From positions 3,298,106 through 3,362,105 of the forward strand of contig NZ_LR882967.1 of NCBI RefSeq assembly GCF_904830925.1: a stretch of 64,000 nucleotides of DNA, given 5' to 3'. Origin of the DNA: Planktothrix pseudagardhii. Lineage in GTDB: Bacteria > Cyanobacteriota > Cyanobacteriia > Cyanobacteriales > Microcoleaceae. The translations under genes were made by a program, and so were the position numbers. The stretch's first letter is position 1; each line of letters starts with the position of its first letter. The notes beneath the pieces are model-generated. The model was given only the letters and a program-made list of their open reading frames with translations, was not told where the DNA came from and did not search any database. This document shows positions 1,637 through 33,404 of this stretch, piece by piece.

Positions 1637-1637
1637 T

Positions 1638-11363: not shown

Positions 11364-11374
11364 CGAAGAAATCC

Positions 11375-11425
11375 CGAAACCCGGTTTCTTCAAGAAATCG
11401 GGTTTCTTTAACAATTCCTAACAAC
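11375..11425 (+). terminator. Candidate rho-independent terminator after the adhesin gene.
   Basis: The GAAACCCG...CGGGTTTC inverted repeat is followed by a T-rich run (TTTCTTTAAC). It starts 12 nt after the stop codon. Confidence 0.4.
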
Positions 11426-11439
11426 TTCAACATTTTTTT

Positions 11440-12261: not shown

Positions 12262-12299
12262 TTCTCTATGTTTTGTTAACTATTCCCTGCTATAACCCT

Positions 12300-13040
12300 A
12301 TGACTTTAAATCCTCTCATTCTGCATCAAGGATGTTCTCTAACCCTCAAACGCACAACTCCCGATGATGCTATTTTTCTATTTGAAAAAATGTATTCTTG
12401 TTATGAATTTATGCGTTTATTTCGTTTGAATGATACAGCAGAAACCGTAGAAGAAGTTAGAGAAAAATTAATCAGAAGATCCCGTTTAACACCTGCTGAA
12501 AGTGGTTATTTAGAATGTTTAATGATTCATAAACATCATGGCATCATTGGAATTATTGCCGCCGCCGACTATAGTGCTCTCCATAAAAGGGCTGAACTGT
12601 TAATTGGAATTTTTGAAGAAAAATATCGTTCTATTTCCTATGGGATTGAAGCGGGTTTATTAATGACAGATTTAATTTTTAATGCCTATCATTTACATCG
12701 CTATTATGCCTATTGTTATGGTTATAACCATCCTGTCCATGCAGCTTTAATTACCGCAGGATTTCAATTAGAAGGAATCATGAAAGAACATTTATATGAT
12801 CCGATCGCTCAACAATATATTGATCTGCACATTTATGCTATGAATGAAACTCAGATGCGACAAAATCCTCGGATTTCTCGTTTATCTAAACGATTAGTTG
12901 GGCGTGATATTACCCAACCTTTAACAGCACCCCTTCCTCCTCCTGATGAATCAAAAATTCCGGGTCTGGGTCGTATTTCCCCATCAGAAAATCAACCTTA
13001 TTTTGCTAAATCAGGAATACTTAAACGAATAAGTTCTTAA
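12300..13040 (+). CDS. GNAT-family N-acetyltransferase (RimJ/RimL-like).
   Basis: The C-terminal ...HPVHAALITAGFQLEGIMKEHLYDP...QYIDLHIYAM is the classic GNAT motif B and C-terminal region. The in-frame ATG at 12300 is a more plausible start than the overlapping upstream start at 12225. Confidence 0.6.
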   Translation: MTLNPLILHQGCSLTLKRTTPDDAIFLFEKMYSCYEFMRLFRLNDTAETVEEVREKLIRRSRLTPAESGYLECLMIHKHHGIIGIIAAADYSALHKRAELLIGIFEEKYRSISYGIEAGLLMTDLIFNAYHLHRYYAYCYGYNHPVHAALITAGFQLEGIMKEHLYDPIAQQYIDLHIYAMNETQMRQNPRISRLSKRLVGRDITQPLTAPLPPPDESKIPGLGRISPSENQPYFAKSGILKRISS

Positions 13041-13129
13041 TTATTTTAGAGTGTTGTCGCAATTACCAACCTTAGATAGATTTTAATTCCACTCAATTTG
13101 ACTAACATCAGTAACGACGCATGAGTTCA

Positions 13130-13320
13130 AAAGTCTGACGATTAGCCCAAGGCACAACAATCCTGGTCGGTTTGTTTATCGCATTATCGATTATTATTCC
13201 TTCTTTGAAAGCGGGAGATTTAGTCCAATTATTGGGTATTAGTGGGGTAGCAATTGGGTTTGCCTTTCGAGATATTTTACAGAATTTCTTGGCAGGTATT
13301 TTAATTTTATTATTTGTAGC
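13130..13320 (+). pseudogene. Fragment of a small-conductance mechanosensitive channel (MscS) gene, pore-lining TM3 region only.
   Basis: The frame encodes ...AQGTTILVGLFIALSIIIPSLKAGDLVQLLGISGVAIGFAFRDILQNFLAGILILLFV, the MscS TM3 signature. No start or downstream beta domain is present. It is truncated where the ATPase remnant begins. Confidence 0.5.
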
Positions 13321-13626
13321 GGAGTTCTCAACCGTTTAGCCAGCACATCAATCGCTTCTGTTGTGATCAGATTTTCTAGTTGCCAAACTCGCCCGACTTT
13401 TATCCACTGACAAAGATTTGGAAACCAAAATCTTGCCACCTTTCCTCAAGGTCTCTTGTAGCCGTCGCAGCGTTAAAGTTTTGCCACAACCCACCACTCC
13501 AGACAGAGCAATCAGTTTTCCTGAAGCAATCGCTGCCTTAATTTCTTTGAACAACTGCCGCAGTTGCTCAGTTTCGTAATAACCAGCCCGTCGAAAATCC
13601 TTGACCAAGCCATAAAATTCCATCAC
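13239..13626 (-). pseudogene. Remnant of an ExeA/AAA_22-type ATPase gene (transposon-associated ATPase) with an internal deletion or frameshift.
   Basis: ORF 13348-13626 encodes the N-terminus MMEFYGL...FRRAGYYETEQL...LIALSGVVGCGKT (Walker A). ORF 13239-13439 encodes a C-terminal-like ...TTEAIDVLAKRLRTPLQI. The central ATPase core is missing. Confidence 0.5.
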
Positions 13627-13864
13627 TGAGCGTCAACATTCCCTGTCCTCTCGTCCGGTTTTAAAGTAAGCTGCTACGCAGCTTATTCTTGCCTGACTTG
13701 TTAATAAAAATGGAAACATCAGAAACATAATAGAAACATTGAAAAATTTTATTGACACTCCCAGGAAGCAGATGCCAAAATGATTCGCATCCATTAGACA
13801 TCTCCAAAATAGAAAAAAGGAGGGGTAAAAAGATGATAAAATTAAATTTTACCCCGGATTAGAG

Positions 13865-14785
13865 ATGAGTAAATTAAGAGACTATCTGGACAAGAATCCC
13901 CAGCAAGCAAAAAGGCTATTAGGGATGGAATATGAACAGATGATAGAACTCATTCAAGCTGCGGAGTTATTAGAAGAAGAAAAACGACAGGAAAAAGAAA
14001 AAACTAAAATCAGGTTGATTAAAGCAGGTGGGGGTCGTCGGCAGAAATTATCTGTGGAGGAACAAATCTTACTGACTCTAATTTATCTGCATCAAATGCC
14101 GACATTTCAAATGTTAGGGTTACAGTTTGAAGTCAGTGAATCAACAGCGAATGATATTTTCCATAACTGGATAAAAATCTTGAGAGAATTACTACCAGCG
14201 AGTTTGCTAGAGCAAGTAAAAAAAAACGAGAGTGATTGGGAGTGGGTAGAAAAAATTCTGGTGGAATTTGAGTTAGTAGTAGATAGCTATGAACAGCCCA
14301 GGGAAAGACCAACAGACAATGAAGAGCAGAAAAAATATTACTCAGGAAAGAAAAAGACACATACCTTTAAAAATCAAGTCATTGTCATGCCAAATGGAAA
14401 AGAAATAGTGGATGTAGCTGTGGGTTATACCGGAGCAACAAGTGATCTGAAATTGTGGAGAGAAAGAAGCCAGGAATTGGGGAATAATCAAAAATACAGA
14501 GGGGATAAAGCTTATGTAGGAGAAACAGCAATTAATACACCGTATAAGAAACCGAGGAATCAAGAGATGTCGGCGGAAAAGCGAGAAGAAAATCGGTTAA
14601 AAGCCCAACAAAGGATTGTAGTTGAACATTTAATAAGACTGATAAAAATTTATCGAGTTGCTTCAGAAAGATTTCGGTTAAAGAGGCAAAATTATGAAGC
14701 AGTAATCTTGACAGTATGTGGATTAATAAGATGGCGAATAGGAGCGATTGTATTACCATCTAAGAATTGCCCAGAATTCTTTTGA
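13865..14785 (+). CDS. IS5-family (DDE_Tnp_4 / Harbinger-like) transposase.
   Basis: The central motifs YSGKKKTHTFKNQVIV...VAVGYTGATSD...YRGDKAYVGE...NTPYKKPRNQEMSAEKREENRLKAQQRIVVEHLIRLIKIYR fit DDE_Tnp_4. A short GGGGTAAAA...TTTTACCCC inverted repeat sits just upstream (13826-13858). Confidence 0.75.
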   Translation: MSKLRDYLDKNPQQAKRLLGMEYEQMIELIQAAELLEEEKRQEKEKTKIRLIKAGGGRRQKLSVEEQILLTLIYLHQMPTFQMLGLQFEVSESTANDIFHNWIKILRELLPASLLEQVKKNESDWEWVEKILVEFELVVDSYEQPRERPTDNEEQKKYYSGKKKTHTFKNQVIVMPNGKEIVDVAVGYTGATSDLKLWRERSQELGNNQKYRGDKAYVGETAINTPYKKPRNQEMSAEKREENRLKAQQRIVVEHLIRLIKIYRVASERFRLKRQNYEAVILTVCGLIRWRIGAIVLPSKNCPEFF

Positions 14786-14830
14786 GAAATAATTGTATAT
14801 CAGAGATAAAATTCATTAGTTATTATTAAT

Positions 14831-15295
14831 GTGACTGAAAAAGCCTATGAATCCGTTACTTTTGGAGAAGCCGGCACAGGAGTGCTAGAGATTCCAAAAG
14901 TAGCGATAGAGGGCATTTGGAGATTTTCGGAGATGTCTAGTGGTGAAAGTGATCAAGTTGCATTAGCGGAAATCGGGGACTGGTTGAAGCGATGGCTAGA
15001 GGCTGTGAATATTTCTCTAACCGATAAAACCCAGTTCGAGGAAGCAACGCGCCATTTACAGTTCGCCATCTTGGTGACAGTGTTAGCGAATCGGTTAAGC
15101 TTTGTGCTTGACCACCTCAGTGCTTTAATGCGATCGCAGGTGATCGACTTTCACGACACTAGCTTATCCCTGGTCAATCGCCCACCACGAGACTATTTAG
15201 CCATTGTCCCTTCGTCACCAGTGGGCAATATCCTCGGCTTTCGATATACCAGCGATCGCCGCCTGCTGGGCAGTTATAATGATGGAAGGAGTTAG
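14831..15295 (+). CDS. Hypothetical protein, possibly a fragment.
   Basis: This is an ORF only. I recognise no motif. It lies in the IS/fragment-rich region. Confidence 0.25.
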   Translation: MTEKAYESVTFGEAGTGVLEIPKVAIEGIWRFSEMSSGESDQVALAEIGDWLKRWLEAVNISLTDKTQFEEATRHLQFAILVTVLANRLSFVLDHLSALMRSQVIDFHDTSLSLVNRPPRDYLAIVPSSPVGNILGFRYTSDRRLLGSYNDGRS

Positions 15296-15647
15296 CATTC
15301 TCGCCCTAGTTTTTTCGCCGTTAGTCATCGGAATATTCAGTAACGACACTGAAGTCATAGCAACCACTACTACCATTCTGCGTATTCATATTTTTTACCA
15401 AGCTGGCGATGCTATTTTTATGATTTACCGAGCCGCTTTGGTGGGATTAAATGATACTTTTTATGTGCGAAATATTAGTTTATTAGGCGGTTGGTTTGTA
15501 ATGATACCTGTTTCATTATTACTAACAAGCGTTATGTCTTTCGGCGTAGTAGGGGCTTGGCTTAAACTAACCCTTAATGTGTTAATCAGTGCGATATTCT
15601 ACGCAGGACGTTTTCACTTTAAATTGAGAGATAGAATAAACAATTGA
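15290..15647 (+). pseudogene. C-terminal fragment of a MATE-family efflux transporter gene.
   Basis: ...ILALVFSPLVIGIFSNDTEVIATTTTILRIHIFYQAGDAIFMIYRAALVGLNDTFYVRNISLLGGWFVMIPVSLLL... matches the last TM helices of NorM/DinF-type MATE proteins. The N-terminal two-thirds are absent. Confidence 0.6.
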
Positions 15648-15880
15648 GAAAAGTTAAAAACTGATTTTGATGTATTTTTACAAATCCTCTTTAATGTTTA
15701 TTTAAGCCGCGGGAAATTGGAATCTATTCAAAATGATAAACTGGTTGTTCAATGTCATACAATGTTCGGGATGATAACGTACCAACTTCTCAATCAGATT
15801 ATCAAATCGGTTCATACCCGGTTTTAAGGCAGAACGAGATAAACGATATAATGGCATCGGGACAGGAACCCCCTTCAAAT

Positions 15881-16999
15881 TCAGGGCTGTTTCATTTTCC
15901 CAAATTGGGGAGTCAAATTGAGTCCCCAATTTTTAGGAATGAGGCGAAAAAGTTGTCCTTCTGTTATTGATACAAAACCCCAACTTCTGAAAAGATTGAT
16001 TACCAGAGTTTTAAGAGTTGAAAAGTTGCTAGCTGCTTGAAAGTTACGAATTCGGCTTTTATCTTCTTGAAAAATTACATCTTTTACCCAATGGTATTGA
16101 TTCTCAATCCCCCAATGTCCTTTAATGATTTGAGCTAAGGTTTGAGCTTCGTTAACGGCACTACTGATATAATATACTTTTTCTTGATAGGGTTTTTTTC
16201 CTCTGTTGCCACTTCTTTCTATCTGAATCACAAGTTTCAGATGTTTCCAGCCTTTGTGAAAGTTGTTATTGACTTGATAAATGGAAACTTTTCGAGTCAC
16301 TTTTCTGCCATGGCTGTGTTCATGAGTCACATCTACACTCACAGGATTTTCACTTTTTATTACCGCTTCAACTTGCTCATATAACTTTTTTTGATTTTTC
16401 TTTAAAGCCATTATATAATCATTCCCGCTCTCAATAACTAGGGCAGCAGTTTTCTGATTACAGTGCAACGCATCAAAGGTTATTACTTTTCTTTTTAACT
16501 GGCAATCCCTTACTATCTTTTGGGCTTGGCTGATTTCTGATTCTTTTTTGTTCTCCATCTTTCTCAGGTTTAATACGCATCCTGTTCTTTGACTAAACAG
16601 TGCAACAATCATCACAAAATTTTGGGATTTATCTCCAAAATCTTTGAGAGTGCTTCTCAGGCTTTTTCCATCTACTGCTAACCAATCTAGTTCTTCTTGA
16701 TGCGGATAATTACAAGTAGCCCATTCATTAAATATCTCAATTAAATTTAACCAATCTACTCCTTGTATTACTCTTCTTATTGTTGAGTATGATGGCAGTT
16801 TTTCTAGCTTGATTTTTAAAACTTGACTCAGTTGGTATTGATTGATTTTCGCAAAATTTTCGAGTTCTCTGTACCCTAAATTTCTCGACATTAGCCCCAA
16901 AATGACTATTAATAATACTAGCCATATTGGATGCCTTGTTCCCTGGGCTTTCCGGTAATCCTTGACTTTTTTCAGTTTTTCTATTAGAGTTGTTAGCAT
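15881..16999 (-). CDS. ISAs1-family transposase (H-repeat-associated, DDE_Tnp_1 with N-terminal DDE_Tnp_1_assoc domain).
   Basis: The N-terminus KDYRKAQGTRHPIWLVLLIVILGLMSRNLGYRELENFAKIN is the ISAs1-associated domain. The DDE core includes ...LAVDGKSLRS...ITFDALHCNQK...HWGIENQYHWVKDVIFQEDKSR. Confidence 0.8.
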   Translation of the reverse strand: MLTTLIEKLKKVKDYRKAQGTRHPIWLVLLIVILGLMSRNLGYRELENFAKINQYQLSQVLKIKLEKLPSYSTIRRVIQGVDWLNLIEIFNEWATCNYPHQEELDWLAVDGKSLRSTLKDFGDKSQNFVMIVALFSQRTGCVLNLRKMENKKESEISQAQKIVRDCQLKRKVITFDALHCNQKTAALVIESGNDYIMALKKNQKKLYEQVEAVIKSENPVSVDVTHEHSHGRKVTRKVSIYQVNNNFHKGWKHLKLVIQIERSGNRGKKPYQEKVYYISSAVNEAQTLAQIIKGHWGIENQYHWVKDVIFQEDKSRIRNFQAASNFSTLKTLVINLFRSWGFVSITEGQLFRLIPKNWGLNLTPQFGKMKQP

Positions 17000-17253
17000 C
17001 TTTATTTTTACAAAAAAATCAGCGACCGCTTTTGATTTTATCAGCTAGCAATCGCTATTTCTTTACTCTTTTCCCCCCGACTTTGAAACAGCCCTGGTTC
17101 AAGTCGGGGGTGATGCCTGTTATGAAAATTATGGAGGGTGTGAGCATTTCCTCTCTAGCAGAGCTAATGCTAGAGCAATGGGCATTGGCTCTGCTCCAGT
17201 CAGCATCCCCATCCACTGAACTCGATGACAGTATGGAGGAAATCGCTCTATGA
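16990..17253 (+). pseudogene. Probable 3' remnant of an upstream biosynthetic gene cut off by the ISAs1 insertion. Its stop overlaps the NRPS start codon (ATGA).
   Basis: The ORF ends ...SISSLAELMLEQWALALLQSASPSTELDDSMEEIAL. Its TGA overlaps the ATG of the NRPS at 17250-17253. Its 5' part runs into the ISAs1 element, so only the last 65 or so codons can be native. Confidence 0.3.
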
Positions 17254-20200
17254 ACCTTAAGCAATTTGTAGCTGAACTCGCCCTAGCTGGTGTGAAGTTG
17301 TGGGTCGAAGACGACCAGTTGCGCGTGCGGGCACCAAAGAAGGTACTGACACCAGAGGTACGTAATTTATTGGCATTGCATAAGGCAGAACTTGTAAAGT
17401 TGCTACAGAACAGCAATGCGATCGCCAATGATACTGACCTACCCCTTCTAAGAGTTTCGCGAACTGGTAACTTGCCTCTGTCTTTTGCCCAAGAAGGACT
17501 GTGGTTCTTGAGCCAGTTGGAGCCAACTAACCCCTTCTACAACGTACCACTAGCTCTGCGACTTAATGGTTCTCTCAACGTTGTCGCTTTAGAGAAAAGC
17601 CTCAACAAGATAATTCAACGCCACGAGGTCTTACGCACCAACTTCACAACGGTTGAGGGGCAACCCGTTCAGGTTATTGCTCTTGGCTTGACCTTGAGTG
17701 TGCAAGTCATAGATTTGAGTGAGCTACCTGAGAGTGAAAGAGAAATTGCTTGGGGGCTAAAAGCCAGGGCACAAATCCAGCAACCCTTTGACCTCAGTAG
17801 CTCTGGGTTGATTCAAGCTTCTGTGCTAAAGCTAACACCGACAGAACATATCTTGTTACTAACAATACATCACATTGTCTGGGATGCTCCTTCAGAGGGC
17901 GTATTGGTCAAGGAGTTAGCAGCTTTCTACACAGCCTACTGCAATGACTTGCTACCAGAGCTACCAGAGCTACCGATTCAGTACGCCGACTTTGCTGTTT
18001 GGCAGCGGCAGTGGTTACAGGAAGACATACTAGAGTCTCAACTTGCTTATTGGAAGCAACAACTGTCTGGTGCGCCAGAAATATTGGAACTGCCAACTGA
18101 CCGAGTGCGAAAAGCAACTCAAACGTTTCGAGGGGCGTGTCACCGACAAGCACTCTCAAAAGAACTAACAGAGGCTTTGATGATTTTAAGTCAACGCAAA
18201 GGAGTTACTCTGTTTATGACGCTGTTGGCGGCGCTCTTCACATTGCTTTACCGTTATACAGAGCAGACCGATATTTGCGTAGGCACGCCTTACGCAGGCC
18301 GGGAGCGCCGTGAGCTTCAGGGATTGATTGGATTGTTTCTCAATACGTTGGTTCTGCGGACTGATATATCAGGTAATCCGAGTTTTGAGGAGCTACTCTC
18401 AAGAGTCCGGGACGTGGCTTTGGGAGCATACGCTCATCATGACCTACCGTTTGAAAAGTTATTAGAACAATTGCAGCCAGCGCGTAACTTAAGCTACACA
18501 CCGTATTTCCAAGTGAGGTTTGTGCTTTACCCAGCGATGCAGATAGACATGGAAGGCTTAACGGTGAGTCCAGTAGCGGTAGAAACAGCTACGGCGAAGT
18601 TGGATTTGTTTGTAGCTTTCGTCAACAGCGACTCTGGACTAATCGGGACGTGGGAATACAATACTGACTTGTTTGATGCCAGTACGATCAATCGCATGGC
18701 TCAACATTTTCAGACCTTACTAGAGGGAATTGTTGCTAATCCTCAACAGAAGGTTTCAGAATTGCCATTGCTCACAGAGCCAGAGCGACACCAGCTATTA
18801 GTAGAGTGGAACAACGCCACAAAAGAGTATCCCTTCAATAAGTGTATCCACCAGTTATTTGAGGAACAGGTGGAGCGATCGCCTGATGCTATTGCGGTGG
18901 TTTTTGAAGGGGAGCAACTGACCTACCAAGATTTGAACCAACGGGCGAACAGAATAGCACATCACTTGAAAACTCTAGGTGTGGAGCCAGAAGTGCTGGT
19001 GGGCATCTACGTTGATCGCTCCTTAGAGATGGTAGTGAGTCTACTTGGCATCCTCAAAACTGGAGGGGCTTATGTGCCTTTAGACCCATCCTATCCCAAA
19101 GAGCGCTTAGCGTTCATGTTGCAAAATTCACAACCAAAGGTGTTGTTGACTCAGGAGTGCTTGATAACAGAACTGCCTGAACATACGGCACAAGTTGTTT
19201 GCTTAGATACAGATAGGCATCTCATTGCTCAACACTCAGAAGAAAATTTAAACCAAACAGCAACAGTTGCTAATTTAGCCTATGTCATTTATACCTCTGG
19301 CTCAACGGGAAAGCCAAAGGGAGTACAGGTGACACACGCTAATTTGTGTCACTATGCCCAAGCAATGAGTCAAGTGCTAAATATCACAGCAGAAGATGTA
19401 TATTTGCACACCGCATCGATTGCTTTCTCATCTTCTGTCAGACAGTTGATCGTGCCTCTGGCTAGTGGGGCAACTGTCAAAATTGCAACTTCTGAACAGA
19501 GAAAAGACCCACAATCACTATTTACGACAATTAAACAACATAGTGTGACAGTTATTGATATTGTCCCCTCTTATTGGCGTAACTGCATTCATACACTTGC
19601 TAGCTTAGAACCTGTTACGAAACAAGCACTGTTAGATAACAAACTGCGTTTAATTGTGTCGGCGAGCGAACCGCTGCTGTCCGATCTTCCTACTCAGTGG
19701 ACGTTTGGTTTTCAGCACAAAGCACGATTAATCAATATGTTTGGTCAAACTGAAACTTGTGGAATTGTTGCCACTTATCCAATTCCGGCACAACAGGATG
19801 AGCCAATCAAAATTGTCCCTATCGGTCGCCCGATCACCAACACACAAATTTATCTGCTCGACTGCCATCTGCAACCAGTCCCTGTTGGTGTACCTGGGGA
19901 AGTGCATATTGGTGGTTTTGGACTGGCGCGAGGCTACCTCAACAGCCCAGAATTGACAAAAGAAAAATTCATCCCCAACCCCTTTAGCCAAGAAGAAGGA
20001 ACACGCCTCTACAAAACCGGGGACAATGCCCGCTACCTTCCAGACGGTAACATTGAGTTCCTTGGTCGGCTGGATCGTCAAGTGAAGATTCGCGGTTTCC
20101 GTATTGAACTCGGAGAAATCGAAGCAGCGCTAGCTCAACACCCAGAGGTACGGGAGACAGTAGTTTTAGCAAGGGATGACCAACCAGATAACAAACGACT

Positions 20201-21503: not shown

Positions 21504-21577
21504 TAATTGGTCTGTTAAGTGGAAATTTTTGAGGTAATTAACAAGCTCTTTCATTTGACTAAAAAAGCTCAATCATT

Positions 21578-22549
21578 ATGAAAATAGGAATTTTCGACTC
21601 GAATCACAATCTACCCTTGCTAGTAGAACCTGACACAAAACGCGAATCGTCTAATTTTGATTATCTCCTTTCATGGTACAAAGATAATAGTGAACTTTTA
21701 TCAAACAAAATTTTGAAACACGGAGCGATTCTTTTTCGAGGTTTTGATGTCAATACAATCTTAGCTTTTGAAAAATTCGTTAAATCTATTTCAGGTAATT
21801 TAATAGATTATGTTGATGGAAATTCTCCCCGAACCCAACTAGCTAGTGGTATTTATACTTCAACTGAATATCCAGCTGAATACTCCATTAGTTTGCATAA
21901 TGAGTTATCCTACTCTAGCCAATGGCCAGACCAACTCTATTTTTGCTGTATTACTGCGCCTAAAGAGGGCGGAGAAACACCAATTGCTGATAGTCGCCAA
22001 ATCCTCAAAAGTCTTAACCCAAAGATTGTGGAAAAGTTCACACTTAAACAAGTGAAGTATATCCGCAATTTACCTAGTAGTAATGGCATGGGAGTTTCAT
22101 GGCAAGATGCTTTTAAAACTTCAGATAAGTCCCTAGTAGAAGAGCATAATAGAAAAGCTGGTATGGATTTTGAGTGGAAGAAGGATGGAGGATTGCGATT
22201 AAGCCAGATTCGTCCTGCTATTGCAACTCATCCTCGTACAGATGAACAAGTTTGGTTTAATCAAGCCGATCTATTTCATCCATCTACTCTTCCTAAAAAT
22301 ATCTACGAAGCTATGATGTTTTATTTTGACGGTAACGAAGAGGAACTCCCTCACTATGCTTGCTTTGGCGACAATACTCCAATTGATGTTTCAATGCTAG
22401 ATGAAATTAGAGAAACTATTGGTAAACAAACTGTTGTTTTTCCTTGGCGGGAGGGTGATGTTCTAGTCATAGATAATATGTTAGTTTGTCATGGACGAAG
22501 ACCGTTTTTTGGTTCGAGAAAAATTTTGATTTCTATGTCACAATTCTGA
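21578..22549 (+). CDS. Fe(II)/2-oxoglutarate-dependent oxygenase of the TauD/clavaminate-synthase-like family. Probably an amino-acid beta-hydroxylase (VioC/AsnO/SyrP-like).
   Basis: The HxE facial triad start (SLHNELSY) and the C-terminal DNMLVCHGRRPF (second His plus 2OG-binding Arg) are typical of the CAS-like branch of PF02668. The gene sits between NRPS genes. Confidence 0.7.
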   Translation: MKIGIFDSNHNLPLLVEPDTKRESSNFDYLLSWYKDNSELLSNKILKHGAILFRGFDVNTILAFEKFVKSISGNLIDYVDGNSPRTQLASGIYTSTEYPAEYSISLHNELSYSSQWPDQLYFCCITAPKEGGETPIADSRQILKSLNPKIVEKFTLKQVKYIRNLPSSNGMGVSWQDAFKTSDKSLVEEHNRKAGMDFEWKKDGGLRLSQIRPAIATHPRTDEQVWFNQADLFHPSTLPKNIYEAMMFYFDGNEEELPHYACFGDNTPIDVSMLDEIRETIGKQTVVFPWREGDVLVIDNMLVCHGRRPFFGSRKILISMSQF

Positions 22550-22574
22550 TTATCTTAGCTATAAGTGTAAGTAG

Positions 22575-24356
22575 ATGTATCAATTCCAAGAGTCTCTTCC
22601 AAAACTACCTTTGCCCAAACTCTCAGACACCTGCGCTCGTTATATCGAGATGGTAACACCGCTGTTGAGTGACACAGAATTAGAGCGAACTAAGACCGCC
22701 GTAAGGGAATTTCAACAAGGGAGTGGAGTCGAACTACAGAAGCAATTGGAGATGATTGACCGCTCAACTAATACTAACTATTTACAACAATTTAAAGAGG
22801 AAACCTATTTAGAAATGCGGTCTTCACAACTAAATATGAGAAGCACAGGGGTGGCTTCGCCCGTCTTGACAACCTCGAAATATTCCTTTACCCGCATTGT
22901 CGCCATCATAATTTTTAATACCCTCCAATTCCACCTGAAAATCAAATATCGGGAACTAGAGCCAGATCGCGATGTATTTCAACGAAACAAACCTCCCCTT
23001 TGTATGGCTCAGTATGACAATTTGTTTGGCAGTGCGCGAATTCCTGGAATCAAATGTGACAGCTTTCAAAGGGCGAAAAATTCTGAGCATATTGTGGTCA
23101 TCCGACGGGATACGTTTTACGTCTTAAAGTTGCTCCCAGGGGATACGTTACCGTCGGTGGAAGCTGTAGCACAGCAAATTGATTGGATTCTGGAAAATAC
23201 TCATCCAGGGGAACTTCCTGTGGGAGTGCTGACATCTCTCCCCAGAGAACAGTGGGCAACAGTTCGCTCCTACCTCACGAACCTAGATGCAGAAAACGCT
23301 TGCTCTCTAGAACTATTGGATAGCGCCTTATTTGTTGTCTGTTTAGACGAAATAACGCCTCCCGATTTGGAAAGGCTAGCAAGAACTGCCTTTACTGGAG
23401 ATGGTGGGCGAAACCGATGGTTCGATAAACCTATTCGGCTCGTTTTTAACTCTGAGGGTCAGTTCGCTGTAACAATTGAACACAGTAATGTCGATGGTTA
23501 TCCGGTAGCACGGTTGATAAGCGAGGTCAACCGGGAGCTTGAACCCCTTGAAGAATCCCTTACATCCTCCAGTTCAGTCGAACTCGAACCCCCACAGCGA
23601 CTGTGGTGGAAATTAGACCAGAAACTCCGAGAAGAAGTAGCTCAAGCATTAACAGATGCAGAGTGTCTGAGCGAACAAATTCAGATGGGGATAATAATTT
23701 TCGACGAATTTGGGTCAGACTTTATCCAGCAACATGGTTTAATTGCTGATGCTGTGTTTCTCCTGTCGCTACAGATTGCTTACACTCGCCTGCATGGTAA
23801 GATTACTACTAGCGCTTGGCAAGCTGTACACAACAGAACCTTCCGGTACGGGCGGCACGACTACGCCTTAGTAGTTACACCCGAATCTGTAGAACTCATT
23901 CAAGCCTTTACTGAGGGAGCTTCAGACGAAGTGCGATATCGGACTCTAAAACGTGCTGTTAACGCTCATTTATGGCGAGTGTTTAACACTAAAAACGGGC
24001 AGGGAGTGGTCATGCACCTTTATGCGCTTTATAACTTAGCTCGCTATAAAGGCAGCAGTGTTCTCGATATTTTTCAAGATAAAACCTTTGAAGAAGTTAT
24101 CTTAGACCCAAGCTTCTCCGCTTCTGCCCTAAGTAATAAAATGGGTGTAGAGATAGCCTGCCCCAGTCCATGTCGCGACTATGGAATCGGCTATGTCATC
24201 GATCGCAACAAGATTACCTTTGCTGTAACGAGTAAACATCTACAGCCGGAAGATTTCATCGCTCTTGTCAAGCAGTGTCTTTCAGAAATCGGAAAATTGT
24301 TAATAGAGCAACGACACCCAGATTCCAATATAAGAATACATTCATCACCACAATGA
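22575..24356 (+). CDS. Choline/carnitine O-acyltransferase family protein (593 aa).
   Basis: The N-terminal LPKLPLPKLSDTCARYIEMVTPLL matches the conserved LPxLPVPxLxxTLxxYL start of carnitine acyltransferases. The catalytic-His region TIEHSNVDGYPVARL matches the EHSxxDG motif. Length fits the family. Confidence 0.7.
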   Translation: MYQFQESLPKLPLPKLSDTCARYIEMVTPLLSDTELERTKTAVREFQQGSGVELQKQLEMIDRSTNTNYLQQFKEETYLEMRSSQLNMRSTGVASPVLTTSKYSFTRIVAIIIFNTLQFHLKIKYRELEPDRDVFQRNKPPLCMAQYDNLFGSARIPGIKCDSFQRAKNSEHIVVIRRDTFYVLKLLPGDTLPSVEAVAQQIDWILENTHPGELPVGVLTSLPREQWATVRSYLTNLDAENACSLELLDSALFVVCLDEITPPDLERLARTAFTGDGGRNRWFDKPIRLVFNSEGQFAVTIEHSNVDGYPVARLISEVNRELEPLEESLTSSSSVELEPPQRLWWKLDQKLREEVAQALTDAECLSEQIQMGIIIFDEFGSDFIQQHGLIADAVFLLSLQIAYTRLHGKITTSAWQAVHNRTFRYGRHDYALVVTPESVELIQAFTEGASDEVRYRTLKRAVNAHLWRVFNTKNGQGVVMHLYALYNLARYKGSSVLDIFQDKTFEEVILDPSFSASALSNKMGVEIACPSPCRDYGIGYVIDRNKITFAVTSKHLQPEDFIALVKQCLSEIGKLLIEQRHPDSNIRIHSSPQ

Positions 24357-24366
24357 GCTTTGAAAA

Positions 24367-25512
24367 ATGGACTTTTCATGGACAGAGGAACAAATTCAGT
24401 TTAGAGAGAAGATTGTTAAATTCGCCCAACAAGAGTTGCAATCAAATCTAATTGACCTAGATTGGCGAGAAGAATTTAACCGAGAAAGTTGGGAAAAATG
24501 TGGGAAATTTGGTCTGATCGGTCTGCCAATTCCTGAACATTATGGGGGAACTGGGACAGATATTCTTACAACGATTTGTGCCTTGGAAGCTTTAGGTTAT
24601 GGTTGTAAAGACAATGGTCTAATCTTTGCCATCAACGCTCATATATGGGCTGGCGAAATACCGATTTTAACCTTTGGCACCGAAGCTCAAAAACAAAAGT
24701 ATCTCCCCAAACTCTGTAGCGGTGAATTCATTGGCGCTCATGGGGCAAGTGAACCAGAAGCAGGTTCGGATATTTACAATCTTAAGACTACTGCCAAAAT
24801 ACAGGGAGACAAGTACATCTTAAATGGTGTTAAGAATTGGGTCACAAATGGTCCAGTTGCTGACCTTTACATTGTATTTGCGAATGTCGCTCCCGAAAAA
24901 GGAAAACGGGGAATTACTGGATTTATCGTCGAAAAAGATTTTGCCGGAGTCGCGATCAATCGTAAAATTTCCAAAATGGGTTTAAGAACGACTCAGTTAG
25001 GTGAACTGTTCCTAGAAAATTGTGAAGTGCCGAGTGAAAATCGTCTTGGTCAAGAGGGTTCGGGACTTGCTATCTTTAATCACAGTATGGAATGGGAGCG
25101 AGGATTCATTCTTGCCAGTGCGATCGGGACTATGGAACGTCTGTTAGAAAGCTGCATTCAATATGCTAGGAAGCGCCAGCAATTTGGTCAATCGATTGGA
25201 AAATTTCAGTTAGTTAGCAGCAAAATTGTTGACATGAAGATGCGACTTGAAACAGCTAGAGCGCTGCTGTATAAAGTAGGATGGTTAAAAAATAATAAAA
25301 AAACGGCGATTATGGAAGCGGCAATGGCAAAACTTTATATTAGTGAATCTTGGGTGCAGTCCTGCCTTGATGCAATTCAGATTCATGGTGGTTATGGCTA
25401 TCTAACTGAGTTAGAACTAGAACGAGAATTAAGGGATGCGTTAGGGAGCAAGCTTTATTCAGGAACCTCTGAGATTCAGTACCAAATAATTGCCCAATTT
25501 ATGGGATTATAG
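24367..25512 (+). CDS. Acyl-CoA dehydrogenase-family flavoprotein. Predicted carrier-protein-tethered prolyl oxidase (PltE/RedW/CloN3/AnaB-like).
   Basis: It has the ACAD fold (MDFSWTEEQ..., GASEPEAGSD, C-terminal ...QIHGGYGY...). It is 381 aa, sits immediately upstream of a stand-alone A domain and a stand-alone PCP, and the stops and starts are closely spaced. Confidence 0.75.
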   Translation: MDFSWTEEQIQFREKIVKFAQQELQSNLIDLDWREEFNRESWEKCGKFGLIGLPIPEHYGGTGTDILTTICALEALGYGCKDNGLIFAINAHIWAGEIPILTFGTEAQKQKYLPKLCSGEFIGAHGASEPEAGSDIYNLKTTAKIQGDKYILNGVKNWVTNGPVADLYIVFANVAPEKGKRGITGFIVEKDFAGVAINRKISKMGLRTTQLGELFLENCEVPSENRLGQEGSGLAIFNHSMEWERGFILASAIGTMERLLESCIQYARKRQQFGQSIGKFQLVSSKIVDMKMRLETARALLYKVGWLKNNKKTAIMEAAMAKLYISESWVQSCLDAIQIHGGYGYLTELELERELRDALGSKLYSGTSEIQYQIIAQFMGL

Positions 25513-25624
25513 AGGGTGATTTTTTGTTTACGCGAGAGCATTTGCGAGATTACGAGACAACGCTGCGGCGCGCTACGAAGAATTGGTACGAATTCATCTC
25601 GCTGTATTATCGTTTGAACATTCT

Positions 25625-27244
25625 ATGGAAGACAGCCCAAAACCCATGCCGTATCTACTGCAACAGCTTTTAGAAATTAGTGCCAAGCAATATCCAGACC
25701 GGGAAGCTGTAATCTATAAAAATAGCAGCATCACGTATCGGGAGTTAGACCAAGTTTCTAATCAGTTAGCCCACCTCTTGATAAGTTGCGGGATATCAAG
25801 AGGCGATCGCGTCGGCATTTACGTGAACAAATCCATTGAAGCAGTCATTGCCATTTTCGGTATCCTTAAAGCTGGATCTGTCTACGTTCCCCTAGACCCC
25901 TTAGCTCCTGCGAAGCGGATAGGCTTTATCATTGACAATTGCCAGATGAAGGCTTTGGTGAGTACCCATAAAAAGATAGCCAGCCTTCAACTGCCAAACA
26001 CCTCTGGTGTCCAGTGCCTGGTACTCGCTGACGATGAAGCACAACAGGACACGGGTAATCTGTCAAATGTCAGGATGGTGTCTTGGCAAGAGGTGTTGCA
26101 AGCACCGCCAAACCCATCACCACCCAGCAATTTGATTGAAGACGATCTTGCCTACATTCTCTACACATCCGGCTCCACTGGCACTCCCAAAGGGGTGATG
26201 ATTAGCCATCGAGCTTCTCTAACCTTTGTCAACTGGGCTTATGATTGCTTTCAGGTACAAAGGAGCGATCGCGTTTCCAATCACGCCCCACTTCATTTCG
26301 ATCTTTCCATCTTTGATATCTTCACCACTATCAAAGCAGGTGCGACTGTCATTCTGGTACCACCGGAACTCTCAGTGTTTCCCAGAAACCTCGCTCAGTT
26401 TATTGAAGAACAACAAATTACCATCTGGTATTCTGTCCCTTCAGTGCTGAGACAGCTAATTGTTTACGGCAACCTGCATCAGGCTCAATTTCCCCATATT
26501 CGGACGATTTTGTTTGCGGGGGAAGTGTTCCCAGTTAAATACCTGCGTCAACTTATGGAGTTGCTACCGCAAGCCAACTACTATAATCTCTACGGACCCA
26601 CAGAAACAAATGTCTGTACTTACTATCCGGTAAAGGAAATTCCTCCTGAAGAGGTAAGAACTCTGCCCATTGGCAAAGCTTGTGCCAACACAGAGGTATT
26701 TGCCGTCAATGAACACAAAGAAATTACCAAACCAGGAGAAGTTGGGGAACTTTACGTGCGTAGCCCCTCCTTAATGAAAGGATACTGGGGAAATCATGAC
26801 AAAACCCAACAGGCTCTCACACCTTTCCCCGTACCAGGTTGCGGATGGTTAGAAAAAGTTTACCGAACTGGGGATTTAGTGAAACTCAATTCTGATGGCA
26901 ACTATATTTATTTAGGTCGTCGCGATAACCAGATTAAGAGCCGAGGATACCGAATTGAACTGGATGAAATTGAAACGACGCTATACGCTCATCCTGCAAT
27001 TGTTGAAGCAGCCGTAATTGCTATTCCCGATGAGGAAATCGGCAAGAAAATCAAGGCTATAATTGCCACACAGGATGGAAATAATCTCAAAAAGAGCGAT
27101 GTAGAATATTTTTGTGCACAGCGTCTACCTAAATACATGATACCGGAGCTAATTGAGTTTCGTTCTGGGTTACCTAAAACCCCTACAGGCAAGATTGACA
27201 AAACCTTACTGCGTACCGAAGAACTTCAAGAGAATTCAAAATAG
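25625..27244 (+). CDS. Free-standing adenylation enzyme (amino-acid adenylation domain). Predicted L-proline activating (PltF/RedM/CloN4/AnaC-like).
   Basis: Core motifs: YTSGSTGTPKGV (A3), FDLSIFDIF (A4, Asp present), NLYGPTETNV (A5), YRTGDLVKL (A7), GRRDNQIKSRGYRIELDEIE (A8), PKTPTGKIDK (A10). The hand-aligned specificity residues are about D-L-F-Y-L-A-L-V-C-K. The ATG at 25625 is preferred over the TTG at 25583. Confidence 0.75.
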   Translation: MEDSPKPMPYLLQQLLEISAKQYPDREAVIYKNSSITYRELDQVSNQLAHLLISCGISRGDRVGIYVNKSIEAVIAIFGILKAGSVYVPLDPLAPAKRIGFIIDNCQMKALVSTHKKIASLQLPNTSGVQCLVLADDEAQQDTGNLSNVRMVSWQEVLQAPPNPSPPSNLIEDDLAYILYTSGSTGTPKGVMISHRASLTFVNWAYDCFQVQRSDRVSNHAPLHFDLSIFDIFTTIKAGATVILVPPELSVFPRNLAQFIEEQQITIWYSVPSVLRQLIVYGNLHQAQFPHIRTILFAGEVFPVKYLRQLMELLPQANYYNLYGPTETNVCTYYPVKEIPPEEVRTLPIGKACANTEVFAVNEHKEITKPGEVGELYVRSPSLMKGYWGNHDKTQQALTPFPVPGCGWLEKVYRTGDLVKLNSDGNYIYLGRRDNQIKSRGYRIELDEIETTLYAHPAIVEAAVIAIPDEEIGKKIKAIIATQDGNNLKKSDVEYFCAQRLPKYMIPELIEFRSGLPKTPTGKIDKTLLRTEELQENSK

Positions 27245-27263
27245 TTCAATAAGGAGATTGATA

Positions 27264-27533
27264 ATGACCGCCGTAAACAAGTACACGGAAGCACAGATAG
27301 AACAGATAATTAAAGAGCATATTGTCCAAAATTTCATGTACGATAGACCCGATATGGTTTTATCAAATGATTTGTCCATAATCGAAGAAGGACTGGTTGA
27401 CTCGCTGGGCATTTTTCGACTGGCTAGCTTTCTGGAAGAAAAGTTTGGTATTACCTTAAATCCAGAAGAATTCTTACTGGAGAATTTTGAAACAGTTAAC
27501 GTTATCAAATCTTTCGTTATCAGCAGACTGTAA
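27264..27533 (+). CDS. Free-standing peptidyl/acyl carrier protein (89 aa).
   Basis: The phosphopantetheine attachment motif is EEGLVDSLGIFRL. A strong RBS AAGGAG lies 8 nt upstream of the ATG. The gene directly follows the A enzyme. Confidence 0.75.
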   Translation: MTAVNKYTEAQIEQIIKEHIVQNFMYDRPDMVLSNDLSIIEEGLVDSLGIFRLASFLEEKFGITLNPEEFLLENFETVNVIKSFVISRL

Positions 27534-27647
27534 CAGTTGTTGCTGCCAATTTCTAACTACCTGCTAGGTTAGATTTTTACAGGCTACGCCATCAAAATCT
27601 ACTTTGACCAAATTAGCTGAAGTTTTAAACAGGCAAACGTTGACGGC

Positions 27648-29015
27648 TCAACCTATGCGTGAATCAGGCAGTTGCTCGGCGACAACCAGAGGTTCATCTT
27701 TCAATGTTCCGGACACCTGCACCGCAAGCACTACCACTCTTATTGCTGCGAACATTGATAGAGCCAACCATAAGAGATGATTGCTCTGATAATGCCATGC
27801 CATGACTGCTAAGGGCGCAAATCCAAACATTGCTCCGCTTAAAGTAGCGTTACGTATAAAATGCCCTTGGGCTAAACCTGCAAAGTATCCATCCAGTATC
27901 ATAGCAATTGAACTAAATCCCAGTCTGGAGAGTAGCCAAGAAACATAGATTTTAACAAGTTCCTTCACTTCACTATGATTGGTTAATAACCCAAAGACTG
28001 TATTCGGGAACAGGATAGACACTCCAGAACAAATTAATGCCGCCAGTAGGCTGGTTGAGACTGCCACCTGCAATAGGGGCAACAATCGATCTATTGTTTG
28101 TTTGCCTTTAAAATTTCCACCCAAAGTCTCGGTAGCAAATCCTATTCCTTCAAAAAAGTAACTGGAAAGCATTATTACTTGTAAGAGTAAGGCATTTTCA
28201 GCCAGGATAGTTGTCCCCATTGCAGAACTTAGAGCCGTGAAAAAGGTGGCGACGAACATATTAGCCGAAGACCTGATAAAGAGATTGCCGTTCAGGGTAA
28301 AAGTCGCTTTAAATGCGCTGGCATCCCAAAACTTTCTGGCTGCACTTCGAGCTTCCTTCCACTCGATATTGAGACTCGCCAAAATTATGCCTACTACTAA
28401 CACCAGATACTGGCTAATTGCCTGAGACAGTCCCGCCCCCGTGCTTGCCCAGTCCCAACGGACAATAAACAGGTAGTCGAACACAACATTAGCTGCATTG
28501 CCTACTAGGGTCATCAGCAACACAAAGCCACTCATTTCTCGTCCGAGAAACCACCCAATCAGAACAAAATTGACGACAACCGCAGGCGCTCCCCAAATTC
28601 GGGCATTGAAATAGTCAATACCTGAAGCCTTAACCTCTGGAGTCACGCTCATTAGACCAAACCACAACTGTTGCAGAGGATATTGCAACAACAGAAGCAG
28701 TCCGCCTATACCCAGTCCGATTAAAGCATTACGCAGTCCCACCAGCAGCATATCTTCGGTGTCATCCCGTCCCACCGCTTGCGCTGTCACTCCAGTGGTT
28801 CCCATGCGTAAAAAGTTCACAATGAAATAGGTGAAGTTAAACAGAGTGGTAGAGAGAGTAACCCCTGCTAAGTGATGGATTTCGGTTAGATGGCCCAGGA
28901 ACGCTAAGCTGATTGTCCCAGCCAGAGGCTCCATAATATTGGACAGGACATTGATGAAAGCTAGTCTAAAGAAGCGAGAAAGGAAGTCGTACCTATTTGG
29001 GAGTGTTATGTTCAT
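27648..29015 (-). CDS. MATE-family efflux transporter, a putative exporter of the cluster product.
   Basis: It has 12 predicted TM helices. The N-terminus ...INVLSNIMEPLAGTISLAFLGHL is typical of NorM/DinF MATE proteins. It is convergent with the biosynthetic genes. Confidence 0.7.
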   Translation of the reverse strand: MNITLPNRYDFLSRFFRLAFINVLSNIMEPLAGTISLAFLGHLTEIHHLAGVTLSTTLFNFTYFIVNFLRMGTTGVTAQAVGRDDTEDMLLVGLRNALIGLGIGGLLLLLQYPLQQLWFGLMSVTPEVKASGIDYFNARIWGAPAVVVNFVLIGWFLGREMSGFVLLMTLVGNAANVVFDYLFIVRWDWASTGAGLSQAISQYLVLVVGIILASLNIEWKEARSAARKFWDASAFKATFTLNGNLFIRSSANMFVATFFTALSSAMGTTILAENALLLQVIMLSSYFFEGIGFATETLGGNFKGKQTIDRLLPLLQVAVSTSLLAALICSGVSILFPNTVFGLLTNHSEVKELVKIYVSWLLSRLGFSSIAMILDGYFAGLAQGHFIRNATLSGAMFGFAPLAVMAWHYQSNHLLWLALSMFAAIRVVVLAVQVSGTLKDEPLVVAEQLPDSRIG

Positions 29016-29039
29016 GGATTTAGGTTCTCCTGTACCTAT

Positions 29040-29600
29040 GGTGATAAGTAAATCTTATAAAGAAAGACAAGCTAGTAGCTTTTCACGCATCATCTCAAAA
29101 TTTTTGAAGCCATAGCTTTGACGAAGAATTAATTTGATCCGGTTGTTTAATCCCTCCATGACTCCACTGGTTGTTCGATTAATAAAATAATGGCAAATAT
29201 CGGGAAGATGGTGTTTAAGAGTTTGGGCGGCTGACGGGGTGACAAAGAAGCTAGAAGGTAGACTGAATCAACATCATAGCTCTCTGACCTCTTTGAAAAA
29301 AAGGGATCTTATTGCATTTAGTTCTCATTAATTGTTGAGCCAAGTCTGCCCAAATTTCCATTCCAGCTATCCATAAAAGCCCATATTGACAAGACCAAAA
29401 GTTGCTGTGCCGTTGAACACTCCGCCCTAATTCTTGAAGGCGGTTGATATATTTTTGTTGCCCAAGTTGTTTGATTTTTAATCCTTGTAAGGCTTTTATG
29501 GTATAAGCGATGGCGCTAGCCGCGCCTGCTGGCGCATCGCTATCAATAAAACCAGACGGGTTAAGCGTCGCCCCTACGATGCACGGTAATTATTGTCACA
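29040..29600 (-). mobile_element. Degraded ISL3-family transposase remnant with no intact ORF.
   Basis: The minus-strand translation near 29050-29240 gives ...HLPDICHYFINRTTSGVMEGLNNRIKLILRQSYGFKNFEMMREKLLACL. This matches the conserved ISL3 transposase C-terminus (..EGxNNKIKxxKRxxYGFRNFxxFRxRIL..). Upstream coding is interrupted by stops. Confidence 0.5.
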
Positions 29601-29620
29601 ATTGATTTAGACTGACTATA

Positions 29621-30616: not shown

Positions 30617-30621
30617 GAAAT

Positions 30622-33129: not shown

Positions 33130-33404
33130 TATTTAAGTTACAATATGAATCAGGTCTATGAACTAAGACCTAATAAGGATCATAAACGTTCCTGAGCTAC
33201 ATTACTTTTTAGCATTCAGAAGACTTCTGTAGGGACAGCTACAGCTTGCACCTACAATTCATGATTCTATCGTGTTTTGTCCGATATCCTTCCTCAAATT
33301 TTGAATTAAACTCTGGATCAGGTCAGTAAACCCCTATAATTAAAAATTAGGTTAGGAATAGAATTGCTATAGTACGTTCTCTCAAAATTAATTATTGATT
33401 TCCA

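Follow-up and report, generated by a model that had tools for sequence, protein, structure and literature searches.

A 16.6-kb accessory island beside dusA in Planktothrix pseudagardhii: a truncated PKS-NRPS cluster, probably acquired horizontally and eroded by insertion sequences

A stretch of 64,000 nucleotides from Planktothrix pseudagardhii No713 (contig NZ_LR882967.1), hereafter the window, was examined in the present study. Strain No713 and P. tepida PCC 9214 constitute 'Lineage 3' of the genus, and the genomes of both were closed by Entfellner et al. 2022 (PMC9366434), who reported 282 insertion sequence (IS) copies in No713, making up 3.7% of the chromosome, and noted that the lineage carries 'unknown NRPS/PKS genes' (nonribosomal peptide synthetase and polyketide synthase, respectively). 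The subject of this report is an accessory island in the spacer between a gene of the GNAT family and dusA, which contains gene fragments, three types of IS and a biosynthetic cluster that extends over 11.8 kb from the start of an NRPS gene to the end of a MATE exporter gene (17250-29015; Table 1). A preliminary description of the window had placed about 16.5 kb of accessory DNA here, comprising an MscS fragment, a two-piece AAA-ATPase, an IS5 transposase, a hypothetical open reading frame (ORF), a MATE fragment, an ISAs1 transposase, an NRPS cluster and an ISL3 remnant. All of these were recovered in place from the ORF listing and from Pfam and NCBIfam searches, and the limits of the stretch are refined below. 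The nearest relatives of the dusA gene of the window are all Planktothrix (DusA scan, one genome per species, 72 loci returned), and the acyltransferase encoded in the cluster matches WP_254174000 (Planktothrix pseudagardhii) at 100% and the P. tepida PCC 9214 protein at 99% identity.

Table 1 Features of the accessory island, in window positions
Feature	Position	Strand	Remarks
Whole island	13045..29612		16,568 bp; in spacer between GNAT stop (13040) and dusA stop (29621); blastn against the L001 empty site
MscS-family channel fragment (TM2/TM3 only), cut on both sides	13143..13339	+	PDB and NCBIfam
TniB-like AAA ATPase remnant, two pieces	13311..13626	-	aa 5-87 at 13626-13378; aa 214-236 at 13379-13311
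Stretch without assigned family	13627..13794		168 bp; absent from P. tepida
IS5-like IS, intact	13795..14939	+	~1.15 kb; transposase ORF 13865-14785; limits from P. agardhii plasmid copies
pPIWI-RE DinG-like defence helicase, C-terminal stub	14940..15262	+	~108 codons; 97.8% identical to P. tepida L076 2058-2381
MATE transporter C-terminal fragment	15258..15647	+	Pfam MatE E 1.3e-6; TIGR00797 positions 297-396 of 396
ISAs1-family IS	15883..17097	-	1,215 bp; transposase ORF 15881-16999, intact
Upstream PKS 3' remnant	17114..17253	+	46 codons and stop; end of carrier domain and C-terminal docking tail
NRPS termination module	17250..21503	+	TubC_N docking, C, A, T, TE (Pfam)
TauD-family dioxygenase	21578-22549	+	Pfam; 91.6% aa to Microcoleus L073
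Choline/carnitine-type acyltransferase	22575-24356	+	Pfam; 87.5% aa to Microcoleus L073
ACAD-type flavoprotein	24367-25512	+	Pfam
Stand-alone adenylation enzyme	25625-27244	+	Pfam
Carrier protein	27264-27533	+	Pfam
MATE exporter, intact	27648..29015	-	Pfam MatE; NCBIfam GntT-type MATE 654 bits
ISL3 transposase 3' stub, without intact ORF	29023..29201	-	~180 bp; 29202-29612 without family match

The site without the island was found in the nearest other species, represented by the Planktothrix metagenome-assembled genome (MAG) L001 (DusA 94% aa). On a single 59.6-kb contig of this MAG, lpxB, VIT/VWA, dusA, GNAT, sulfotransferase and adhesin genes lie contiguously, with GNAT and dusA converging and their stop codons 22 bp apart. 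Two blastn alignments between the reverse-complemented contig and the window place the island, with contig positions 883-6115 corresponding to window 7843-13048 and positions 6114-11033 to window 29617-34576. Read base by base, the L001 spacer (...TAA TTAT followed directly by ATATCAAC...) is split in the window after TTAT (13044) and before ATATCAAC (29613). This reading shows the spacer sequence once only at the island edges, with no border duplication, and a repeat finder returned no border repeats. The sole likeness between the borders is an imperfect 9-mer just inside the ends (TTTAGAGTG at 13045-13053 and TTTAGACTG at 29600-29608); this 9-mer and an 11-mer, which stand in swapped order at the two ends, were considered as border repeats and judged to be due to chance, so that the direct repeats which the preliminary description had proposed to look for are lacking. 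No tRNA or tmRNA was found in the whole window, and neither the island ORFs nor the two largest unassigned stretches (15640-15885 and 29190-29615, translated in six frames) yielded an integrase or recombinase domain, in agreement with what had been described. By its absence from the syntenic site in L001 the stretch is a genomic island in the broad sense.

The cluster itself is more incomplete than its initial description as an NRPS cluster suggested. Directly upstream of the NRPS gene lies the 3' end of a PKS gene, 87% identical at the amino acid level and ~93% at the nucleotide level to the terminal codons of the PKS (more than 2,200 aa) that immediately precedes the orthologous NRPS in Microcoleus L073. 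The order in Microcoleus sp. D2_18a_B4 is PKS (>2,200 aa), NRPS (1,416 aa, same domain order), TauD, acyltransferase and methyltransferase, with the Microcoleus PKS overlapping the NRPS start by 4 bp. Window positions 17114-24282 share 93.0% DNA identity with Microcoleus L073 over 7,170 bp, and the NRPS is 92% identical to its Microcoleus orthologue at the amino acid level, with a synonymous divergence (dS) of 0.15. The homology begins within the last 46 PKS codons, 14-17 bp from the end of the ISAs1 element, and stops near 24282-24305 in the last acyltransferase codons. TubC-type docking domains, such as the one at the start of this NRPS, need the C-terminal tail of the upstream synthase. A complete hybrid PKS-NRPS assembly line was not found at the locus, where the upstream PKS is kept as 46 codons. 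The NRPS cluster is therefore present as described but constitutes the 3' half of a hybrid PKS-NRPS cluster, the PKS of which is truncated beside ISAs1. A search with the last 1,199 aa of the Microcoleus PKS gave best hits of no more than 62% identity over long stretches and none from Planktothrix, in a search that also did not return the query's own protein.

Comparison of divergence inside and outside the cluster suggests that the NRPS-TauD-acyltransferase block was acquired horizontally. The flanking core genes share ~87-88% DNA identity with the nearest other Planktothrix, as against 93% between the cluster core and Microcoleus. Estimates of dS between the cluster and Microcoleus range from 0.13 to 0.24, with a ratio of nonsynonymous to synonymous divergence (dN/dS) of ~0.3, and those between the flanking core genes and L001 from 0.13 to 0.31. 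Non-Planktothrix dusA genes reach at most 76% amino acid identity, and the DusA scan recovered no dusA of Microcoleus, none being similar enough. The cluster is thus far nearer to another genus than the genome background allows, which argues for horizontal transfer at roughly the time at which the lineage separated from L001. A search with the acyltransferase protein gave close relatives from two Microcoleus genomes (88% and 85% aa), followed by Nostoc and others. The cluster has a GC content of 44.2%, compared to 41.1% in the rest of the window, and its large genes have a GC content at third codon positions (GC3) of 0.42-0.46 versus 0.20-0.30 in the GNAT, sulfotransferase, dusA, VWA and lpxB genes. 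The octameric cyanobacterial palindrome HIP1, GCGATCGC, occurs 25 times in the window against 0.38 expected and is spread evenly over island and flanks, at 0.36 per kb inside the island and 0.40 per kb outside; this equal density indicates a cyanobacterial donor. A Legionella-like host, which the GC content had at first suggested, was rejected in view of the abundance of HIP1 and the relatives of dusA.

Beyond the end of the Microcoleus homology, the ACAD, adenylation and carrier genes find their nearest counterparts on other cyanobacterial contigs (L093-L095; ACAD 84-87%, adenylation enzyme 76-79%, carrier protein 49%), where ACAD and adenylation genes form a cassette with an FAD-dependent halogenase gene; the adenylation-enzyme search did not return the window's own protein. 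In these homologous cassettes a halogenase of the Trp-halogenase type lies between the ACAD and adenylation genes, whereas in the window the two are separated by 112 bp and no halogenase is present. PltE, PltF and PltL of pyoluteorin and Bmp1-4 of the bromopyrroles follow a logic in which a prolyl-carrier is converted to pyrrole-2-carboxyl. By analogy, the ACAD, adenylation and carrier genes are most likely a prolyl-carrier to pyrrole-2-carboxyl cassette without halogenase. Like the PltF/PltL/PltE and Bmp1-4 cassettes, the window has a stand-alone adenylation enzyme, a small carrier protein and an ACAD flavoprotein side by side, differing in the missing halogenase and the 112-bp gap between ACAD and adenylation genes. 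An alternative assignment of the adenylation enzyme as a fatty-acyl-AMP ligase providing a lipid starter was dropped, its homologues being annotated as amino-acid adenylation enzymes or prolyl-carrier ligases and located in ACAD-halogenase-adenylation cassettes. A MATE exporter of the same type (58% identity) adjoins Carn_acyltransf genes in two other contigs (L079 and L085), and in Nostoc the acyltransferase gene has those of a carrier protein (54% identity) and an adenylation enzyme as its neighbours. These recurring links of MATE, carrier and adenylation genes with the acyltransferase make the right half a plausible functional part of the pathway, and the cluster as a whole is a mosaic of sub-clusters that recombine between taxa.

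Acyltransferases of PF00755, a mainly eukaryotic family, recur within cyanobacterial PKS/NRPS clusters in Microcoleus, Nostoc and several metagenome contigs (L073, L074, L079, L081 and L085), where their neighbours are MATE exporters, carrier proteins, adenylation enzymes or WelO5-type halogenases. We found no literature on the role of carnitine-acyltransferase-like enzymes in cyanobacterial pathways and none describing a link between a pyrrole-type cassette and such an enzyme. Both Microcoleus genomes carry a tyrosine integrase within a few kb after the related cluster (L073 15273-20891; L074 14472-15464), and one of the two also has two group II intron reverse transcriptases after the cluster, so that its surroundings are mobile there too. 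The MATE exporter of the window scores 654 bits, above the cut-off of 525, with the NCBIfam equivalog model 'guanitoxin biosynthesis MATE GntT', with no gnt genes nearby; this model is probably too general and would mis-name the gene.

A tentative reading that joins these observations is that the island carries the tailoring half of PKS-NRPS clusters that form an undescribed cyanobacterial family, in which the acyltransferase would O-acylate a TauD-hydroxylated residue with a proline-derived pyrrole-2-carboxyl unit supplied by the ACAD, adenylation and carrier cassette. The family would have been exchanged and reshuffled among Microcoleus, Planktothrix, Nostoc and other cyanobacteria, and the truncated copy, in which all seven ORFs are undamaged in two strains, might still yield a small shunt product. 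Taken as a whole, we regard this reading as rather unlikely to hold.

The same island is present at the same site in two independent assemblies of P. tepida PCC 9214, one closed (LR882970, PacBio) and one draft (LN889812). Alignment to close relatives, which the preliminary description had recommended, thus finds the stretch present in the sister strain and absent from the nearest other species. From window position 15258 to at least 34356 the two strains are 99.8% identical, a span that takes in the MATE fragment, ISAs1 and the PKS stub, the full set of cluster genes, and the ISL3 stub with the adjoining core flank. To the left of this the strains differ. P. tepida is without window 13544-14938, that is, the 5' end of the ATPase gene, the 168 unassigned bp and the IS5-like element, and holds 1,560 bp of a long helicase frame instead. 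Helicase stub and MATE fragment are also separated in P. tepida by a further 1,284 bp, comprising a DUF772-type IS of 985 bp and ~300 bp more of the MATE gene; this IS (L077 14127-15111), at the helicase/MATE junction, was collapsed to a single N in the older draft (L078 14127). Strain No713 has gained the IS5-like element and lost ~1.5 kb of the helicase gene together with a 1.3-kb piece containing another IS, and P. tepida has lost the 5' end of the ATPase gene. Each strain has lost something kept by the other, and therefore neither state of the left mosaic is ancestral to the other.

At least one IS insertion and three deletions have thus occurred since the divergence of two strains that differ by 0.2% here, which is direct evidence for the repeated IS insertion and deletion that had been suggested for the locus and which indicates that decay is ongoing in the left mosaic. 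Because the order is conserved from 15258 onwards in P. tepida, the arrangement in this part is older than the separation of the two strains, both isolated in Africa, and did not arise very recently in just one of them. The preliminary description held that conservation of the gene order across related species, fragments included, would imply an old and stable arrangement instead of a recent mobile island; such conservation extends to P. tepida for the part from 15258, and the next relative is without the island entirely. Of the six amino acid differences that separate the acyltransferases of No713 and PCC 9214, five are concentrated in a segment of 28 residues (aa 338-365; 23586-23669), and the gene accounts for 11 of the 29 cluster mismatches between the strains in the region. 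This patch may be due to gene conversion or recombination.

All of the IS in the window island differ in type and state of preservation. The transposase of the intact IS5-like element matches DDE_Tnp_4 (E 6e-31) and HTH_Tnp_4 (E 1e-18) in Pfam and reaches 79.8 and 26.7 bits with NCBIfam IS5 models that have cut-offs of 140 and 110, respectively. Copies that are ~92.6% identical occur with unrelated flanks on six P. agardhii plasmids, where RefSeq labels them just 'transposase family protein'; they share the ends TAGACATCTCC...GGAGATGTCTA. Inverted repeats of 19 nt (13791-13809 and 14925-14943) may extend the element four bases past either end. Its target duplication is either TA or none, a 3-bp model fitting two of three plasmid copies and not the window copy. 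The ISAs1 transposase is well supported (NF033564, 260 bits against a cut-off of 70; DDE_Tnp_1 and DDE_Tnp_1_assoc in Pfam). The limits of this element were fixed by four metagenome copies found via a protein-based scan, an exact-pattern scan of metagenomes for the ISAs1 end having given no match; its ends, CAGGGCTGTTTCA and TGAAACAGCCCTG, are 13-bp perfect terminal repeats common to the four copies, which have unrelated flanks. Members of the ISAs1 family generate direct target duplications of 8-10 bp. None was found around this copy, the flanks of which match at six of nine positions with a 1-nt shift, a likeness compatible with chance. The ISL3 copy is a remnant that is unable to transpose. 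Only the last ~50 residues of its transposase are matched (NF033550 positions 319-368 of 370, E 1e-13, 51 bits against a cut-off of 180; PF01610 E 5.6e-14), and its DNA matches the ISL3 3' ends on Gloeothece plasmids at 75-77% over 29023-29201 only. A six-frame family search of 29190-29615 gave no hit.

A mosaic of gene pieces fills the left part of the island. All those listed there (MscS, MATE, ATPase and helicase), as well as ISL3, are truncated. The MscS fragment matches the pore-lining TM3 region of YnaI/MscS in a PDB search (E 0.003), in which nearly all of 32 hits (to E = 1) were MscS-family channels, and NCBIfam MscS positions 91-128 (E 0.0065). The ATPase remnant carries the Walker A motif GVVGCGKT, an internal deletion of 126 aa and a 3' truncation. 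Its closest relatives are ATPases of 323 aa on the Nostocales plasmid pHT582-1 and on Gloeothece plasmids (82% and 77% identity in tblastn, respectively), with the two pieces matching the pHT582-1 protein at 82% (aa 5-87) and 83% (aa 214-236). On these plasmids the ATPase gene stands last in a module of resolvase, DDE-transposase and ATPase genes, and in pHT582-1 it overlaps the end of a 552-aa transposase gene that is preceded by the resolvase gene. Orthology to the module ATPase identifies the remnant as a TniB-like transposition ATPase and hence as the trace of a fourth type of mobile element. The preliminary description had counted three or more IS families and had not noticed it. In the adjoining 168-bp stretch, ~25 minus-strand codons (...LLTSQARISCVAAYFKTGREDREC before the stop) weakly resemble by eye the C-terminal end of the partner DDE transposase (...LLAQTLSKKVILERVRHYFKQRRENKDAD before the stop), a likeness that is not significant in tblastn. 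The 'hypothetical ORF' of the preliminary description is present at 14831-15295 but proves to be a chimera, with its first 36 codons in the right end of the IS5-like element and the helicase stub from 14940. The longer P. tepida copy of the helicase, a frame of 900 aa, matches PADLOC PprDinG (PDLC02422, E 3.6e-69, profile positions 97-608 of 930) and Pfam pPIWI_RE_Z. A full-length homologue of 1,179 aa is encoded on Aulosira laxa plasmid2, and homologues of the helicase are found on Nostocales plasmids; the remaining genes of the pPIWI-RE system are absent here.

Both flanks had been described as core regions. Six more Planktothrix-like loci keep lpxB-VWA-dusA but have three other housekeeping sets downstream of dusA (IspD with a family-9 glycosyltransferase; CobQ; CobW with HupE), none of which resembles the window. 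The adhesin/GNAT side is thus core only for the lineage of the window and L001. Three differing housekeeping neighbourhoods point to a synteny breakpoint in the genus and not to a shared landing site, which weakens the idea of an integration hotspot on the 3' side of dusA. In the Planktothrix genome GU0601_MAG3 a TnpB/IS605-OrfB gene is inserted ~1.7 kb downstream of dusA relative to strain PCC 11201 (L066 12752-13882, compared to L006), and its dusA and VWA genes show a frameshift in the tblastn output. The adhesin-like gene at 1662-11363 (3,233 aa) contains 12.4 tandem copies of a 294-bp unit, a second array with periods of 159, 315 and 474 bp, and a 45-bp GGC-rich array (repeats at 1637-6525 and 8697-9000). 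Its P. tepida allele encodes 2,910 aa, so that the repeat number differs between near-identical strains. A further coding repeat of 8.5 copies of a 57-bp unit (97% identity) lies at 38094-38580 within ORF 37545-39209, and its copy number differs in relatives, as judged from staggered blast matches.

We consider it likely that the stretch is a lineage-specific accessory island which was horizontally acquired and then eroded in place by insertion sequences. The ancestor of P. pseudagardhii and P. tepida would have had GNAT and dusA converging over a 22-bp spacer, as in the nearest other species, and this spacer is now occupied by foreign cyanobacterial DNA. Entry may have proceeded by illegitimate or homology-facilitated recombination of transformed or plasmid DNA and not through a dedicated integrase or transposon. 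One part of this DNA is the PKS-NRPS core joined to the ACAD, adenylation and carrier cassette and the MATE exporter, and the remainder is debris of plasmid-type mobile and defence genes (the TniB-like ATPase and pPIWI-RE DinG-like helicase) along with MscS and MATE pieces. The ISAs1 element occupies the place of the upstream PKS, and ISL3 is reduced to a stub at the other edge. These truncations may have arisen by IS-adjacent deletion or by recombination between IS copies, and either process would account for the absence of a matching target duplication from every IS of the island. Lacking its PKS partner, the cluster would no longer make the original product.

Import of the cluster on a composite transposon, the other origin envisaged in the preliminary description, would require that two copies of one IS moved it as a unit to dusA. 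The cluster does have an IS on each side, ISAs1 at the left and the ISL3 stub at the right. The two belong to different families, the ISL3 stub is without its 5' end and catalytic region, and the cargo opens with a truncated PKS, which indicates that the left IS cut the cluster and did not carry it. There is no convincing target duplication around the IS pair or the island, no second copy of any of the three IS was found in the window or in the retrieved loci, and the Microcoleus copy of the cluster is without these IS at its flanks, so that we consider a composite transposon very improbable. An error of assembly or binning that wrongly joined the block to the dusA region is excluded. IS-rich regions are prone to misassembly, as illustrated by the single-N gap at the collapsed IS in the P. 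tepida draft, but the same junctions occur at both borders in three independent assemblies of two strains (the window, LR882970 and LN889812), and HIP1 motifs run alike through island and flanks. The island could alternatively be ancestral to the clade and have been lost from L001 by a clean deletion. It is stably present in two strains isolated 18 years apart in different countries (PMC9366434), and the direction of change is read from one empty site, in a MAG, with no outgroup having GNAT beside dusA. Such a deletion would need to have removed exactly 16,568 bp and left an intact 22-bp spacer with no border repeat to mediate it. The dS of the cluster to another genus, being no greater than that of the core genes to L001, also fits acquisition at or after the L001 split, and IS elements, gene stubs, plasmid-type genes and a GC3 shift are typical of acquired DNA. 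Ancestral presence thus appears improbable.

A possible scenario, although one we think unlikely, is that the mosaic came together in its entirety at another place, such as a plasmid, and was captured once, with only the strain-specific changes having taken place in situ. Cyanobacterial plasmids harbour the nearest DNA matches to three components (the IS5-like element, the TniB-like ATPase and the DinG-like helicase), Lineage 3 strains carry one to four plasmids (PMC9366434), and the cuts in the outermost MscS and ISL3 stubs fall exactly on the island borders, which is what a random fragment would show. Against this, the plasmid collection PLSDB contained neither an acyltransferase homologue nor a copy of this ISAs1, and no retrieved locus has a donor arrangement with the same junctions. 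A single capture departs from acquisition followed by erosion in place solely in how many entry events took place. The data do not allow these to be counted, and this failure to tell one-piece arrival from stepwise accretion of the mosaic is one of several points that weigh against the explanation we favour. The polarity of the change is another, for the reason given above. The background for the horizontal claim is provided by the dusA genes of other genera and not by direct Planktothrix-Microcoleus core-gene divergence. The shift in GC and codon usage, which the preliminary description had proposed to analyse, is modest, with two unrelated genes of the window reaching similar values. The missing part of the PKS might sit elsewhere in the genome following IS recombination, instead of having been deleted. 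All seven cluster ORFs are intact in both strains, and the differences between No713 and PCC 9214 (7 synonymous and 11 nonsynonymous in NRPS, TauD and acyltransferase; 6 and 2, respectively, in the rest of the cluster) are not numerous enough to reveal relaxed selection.

Acquisition followed by erosion is in keeping with what has been reported for the genus. The mcy, apn and aer clusters of Planktothrix are rearranged or inactivated by ISPlr1 and other IS (PMC9366434), in the same genus and genomes as here, with IS of the same kinds including the ISAs1 family, and with clusters cut to remnants such as mcyT and apnE. That study treats seven named pathways and does not describe the present island, its empty site, its Microcoleus-like origin or the PKS truncation; it found no general IS enrichment near clusters, whereas three IS types lie within 16.6 kb here. 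Pancrace et al. 2017 (PMC5259702) listed PNL3, an orphan NRPS cluster of 11.3 kb found in PCC 9214 only and without database similarity, and the cluster of the window is probably PNL3. PNL3 was listed as an NRPS cluster; the window cluster now has Microcoleus relatives and is a truncated hybrid PKS-NRPS, not a complete NRPS. The apt-oci-mdn 'genomic island' of the same study was likewise delimited by its size, by mobile elements at its edges and by a bias in composition, which in the present island is modest.

Islands associated with integrases and tRNAs, together with the dusA-specific integrative elements of Proteobacteria, resemble the present island in being an accessory block at dusA that is absent from relatives, deviates in composition (mildly so here) and contains mobility genes. 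They are unlike it in that no integrase, tRNA or att-like direct repeats are present here and the insertion lies in the spacer 3' of dusA. The dusA-specific integrases of Proteobacteria target the 5' end of dusA.

The locus is therefore a further well-resolved case of a known Planktothrix pattern, the IS-driven erosion of horizontally acquired secondary-metabolite clusters, and is not conceptually new. The entry and decay of such a cluster in bloom-forming cyanobacteria is documented here through an empty site located to the base, a donor-like cluster from a different genus and a pair of sister strains set apart by single events of IS insertion and deletion. For genome mining, what has been called the 'orphan NRPS cluster' of Lineage 3 probably represents the tail end of a PKS-NRPS line without its PKS, and a product prediction made from this tail alone would be wrong. 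Above the architecture of the island, we consider the most interesting by-product to be the family of acyltransferase-containing clusters, which reveals a recurrent and uncharacterised link between carnitine-acyltransferase-like enzymes and cyanobacterial assembly lines.

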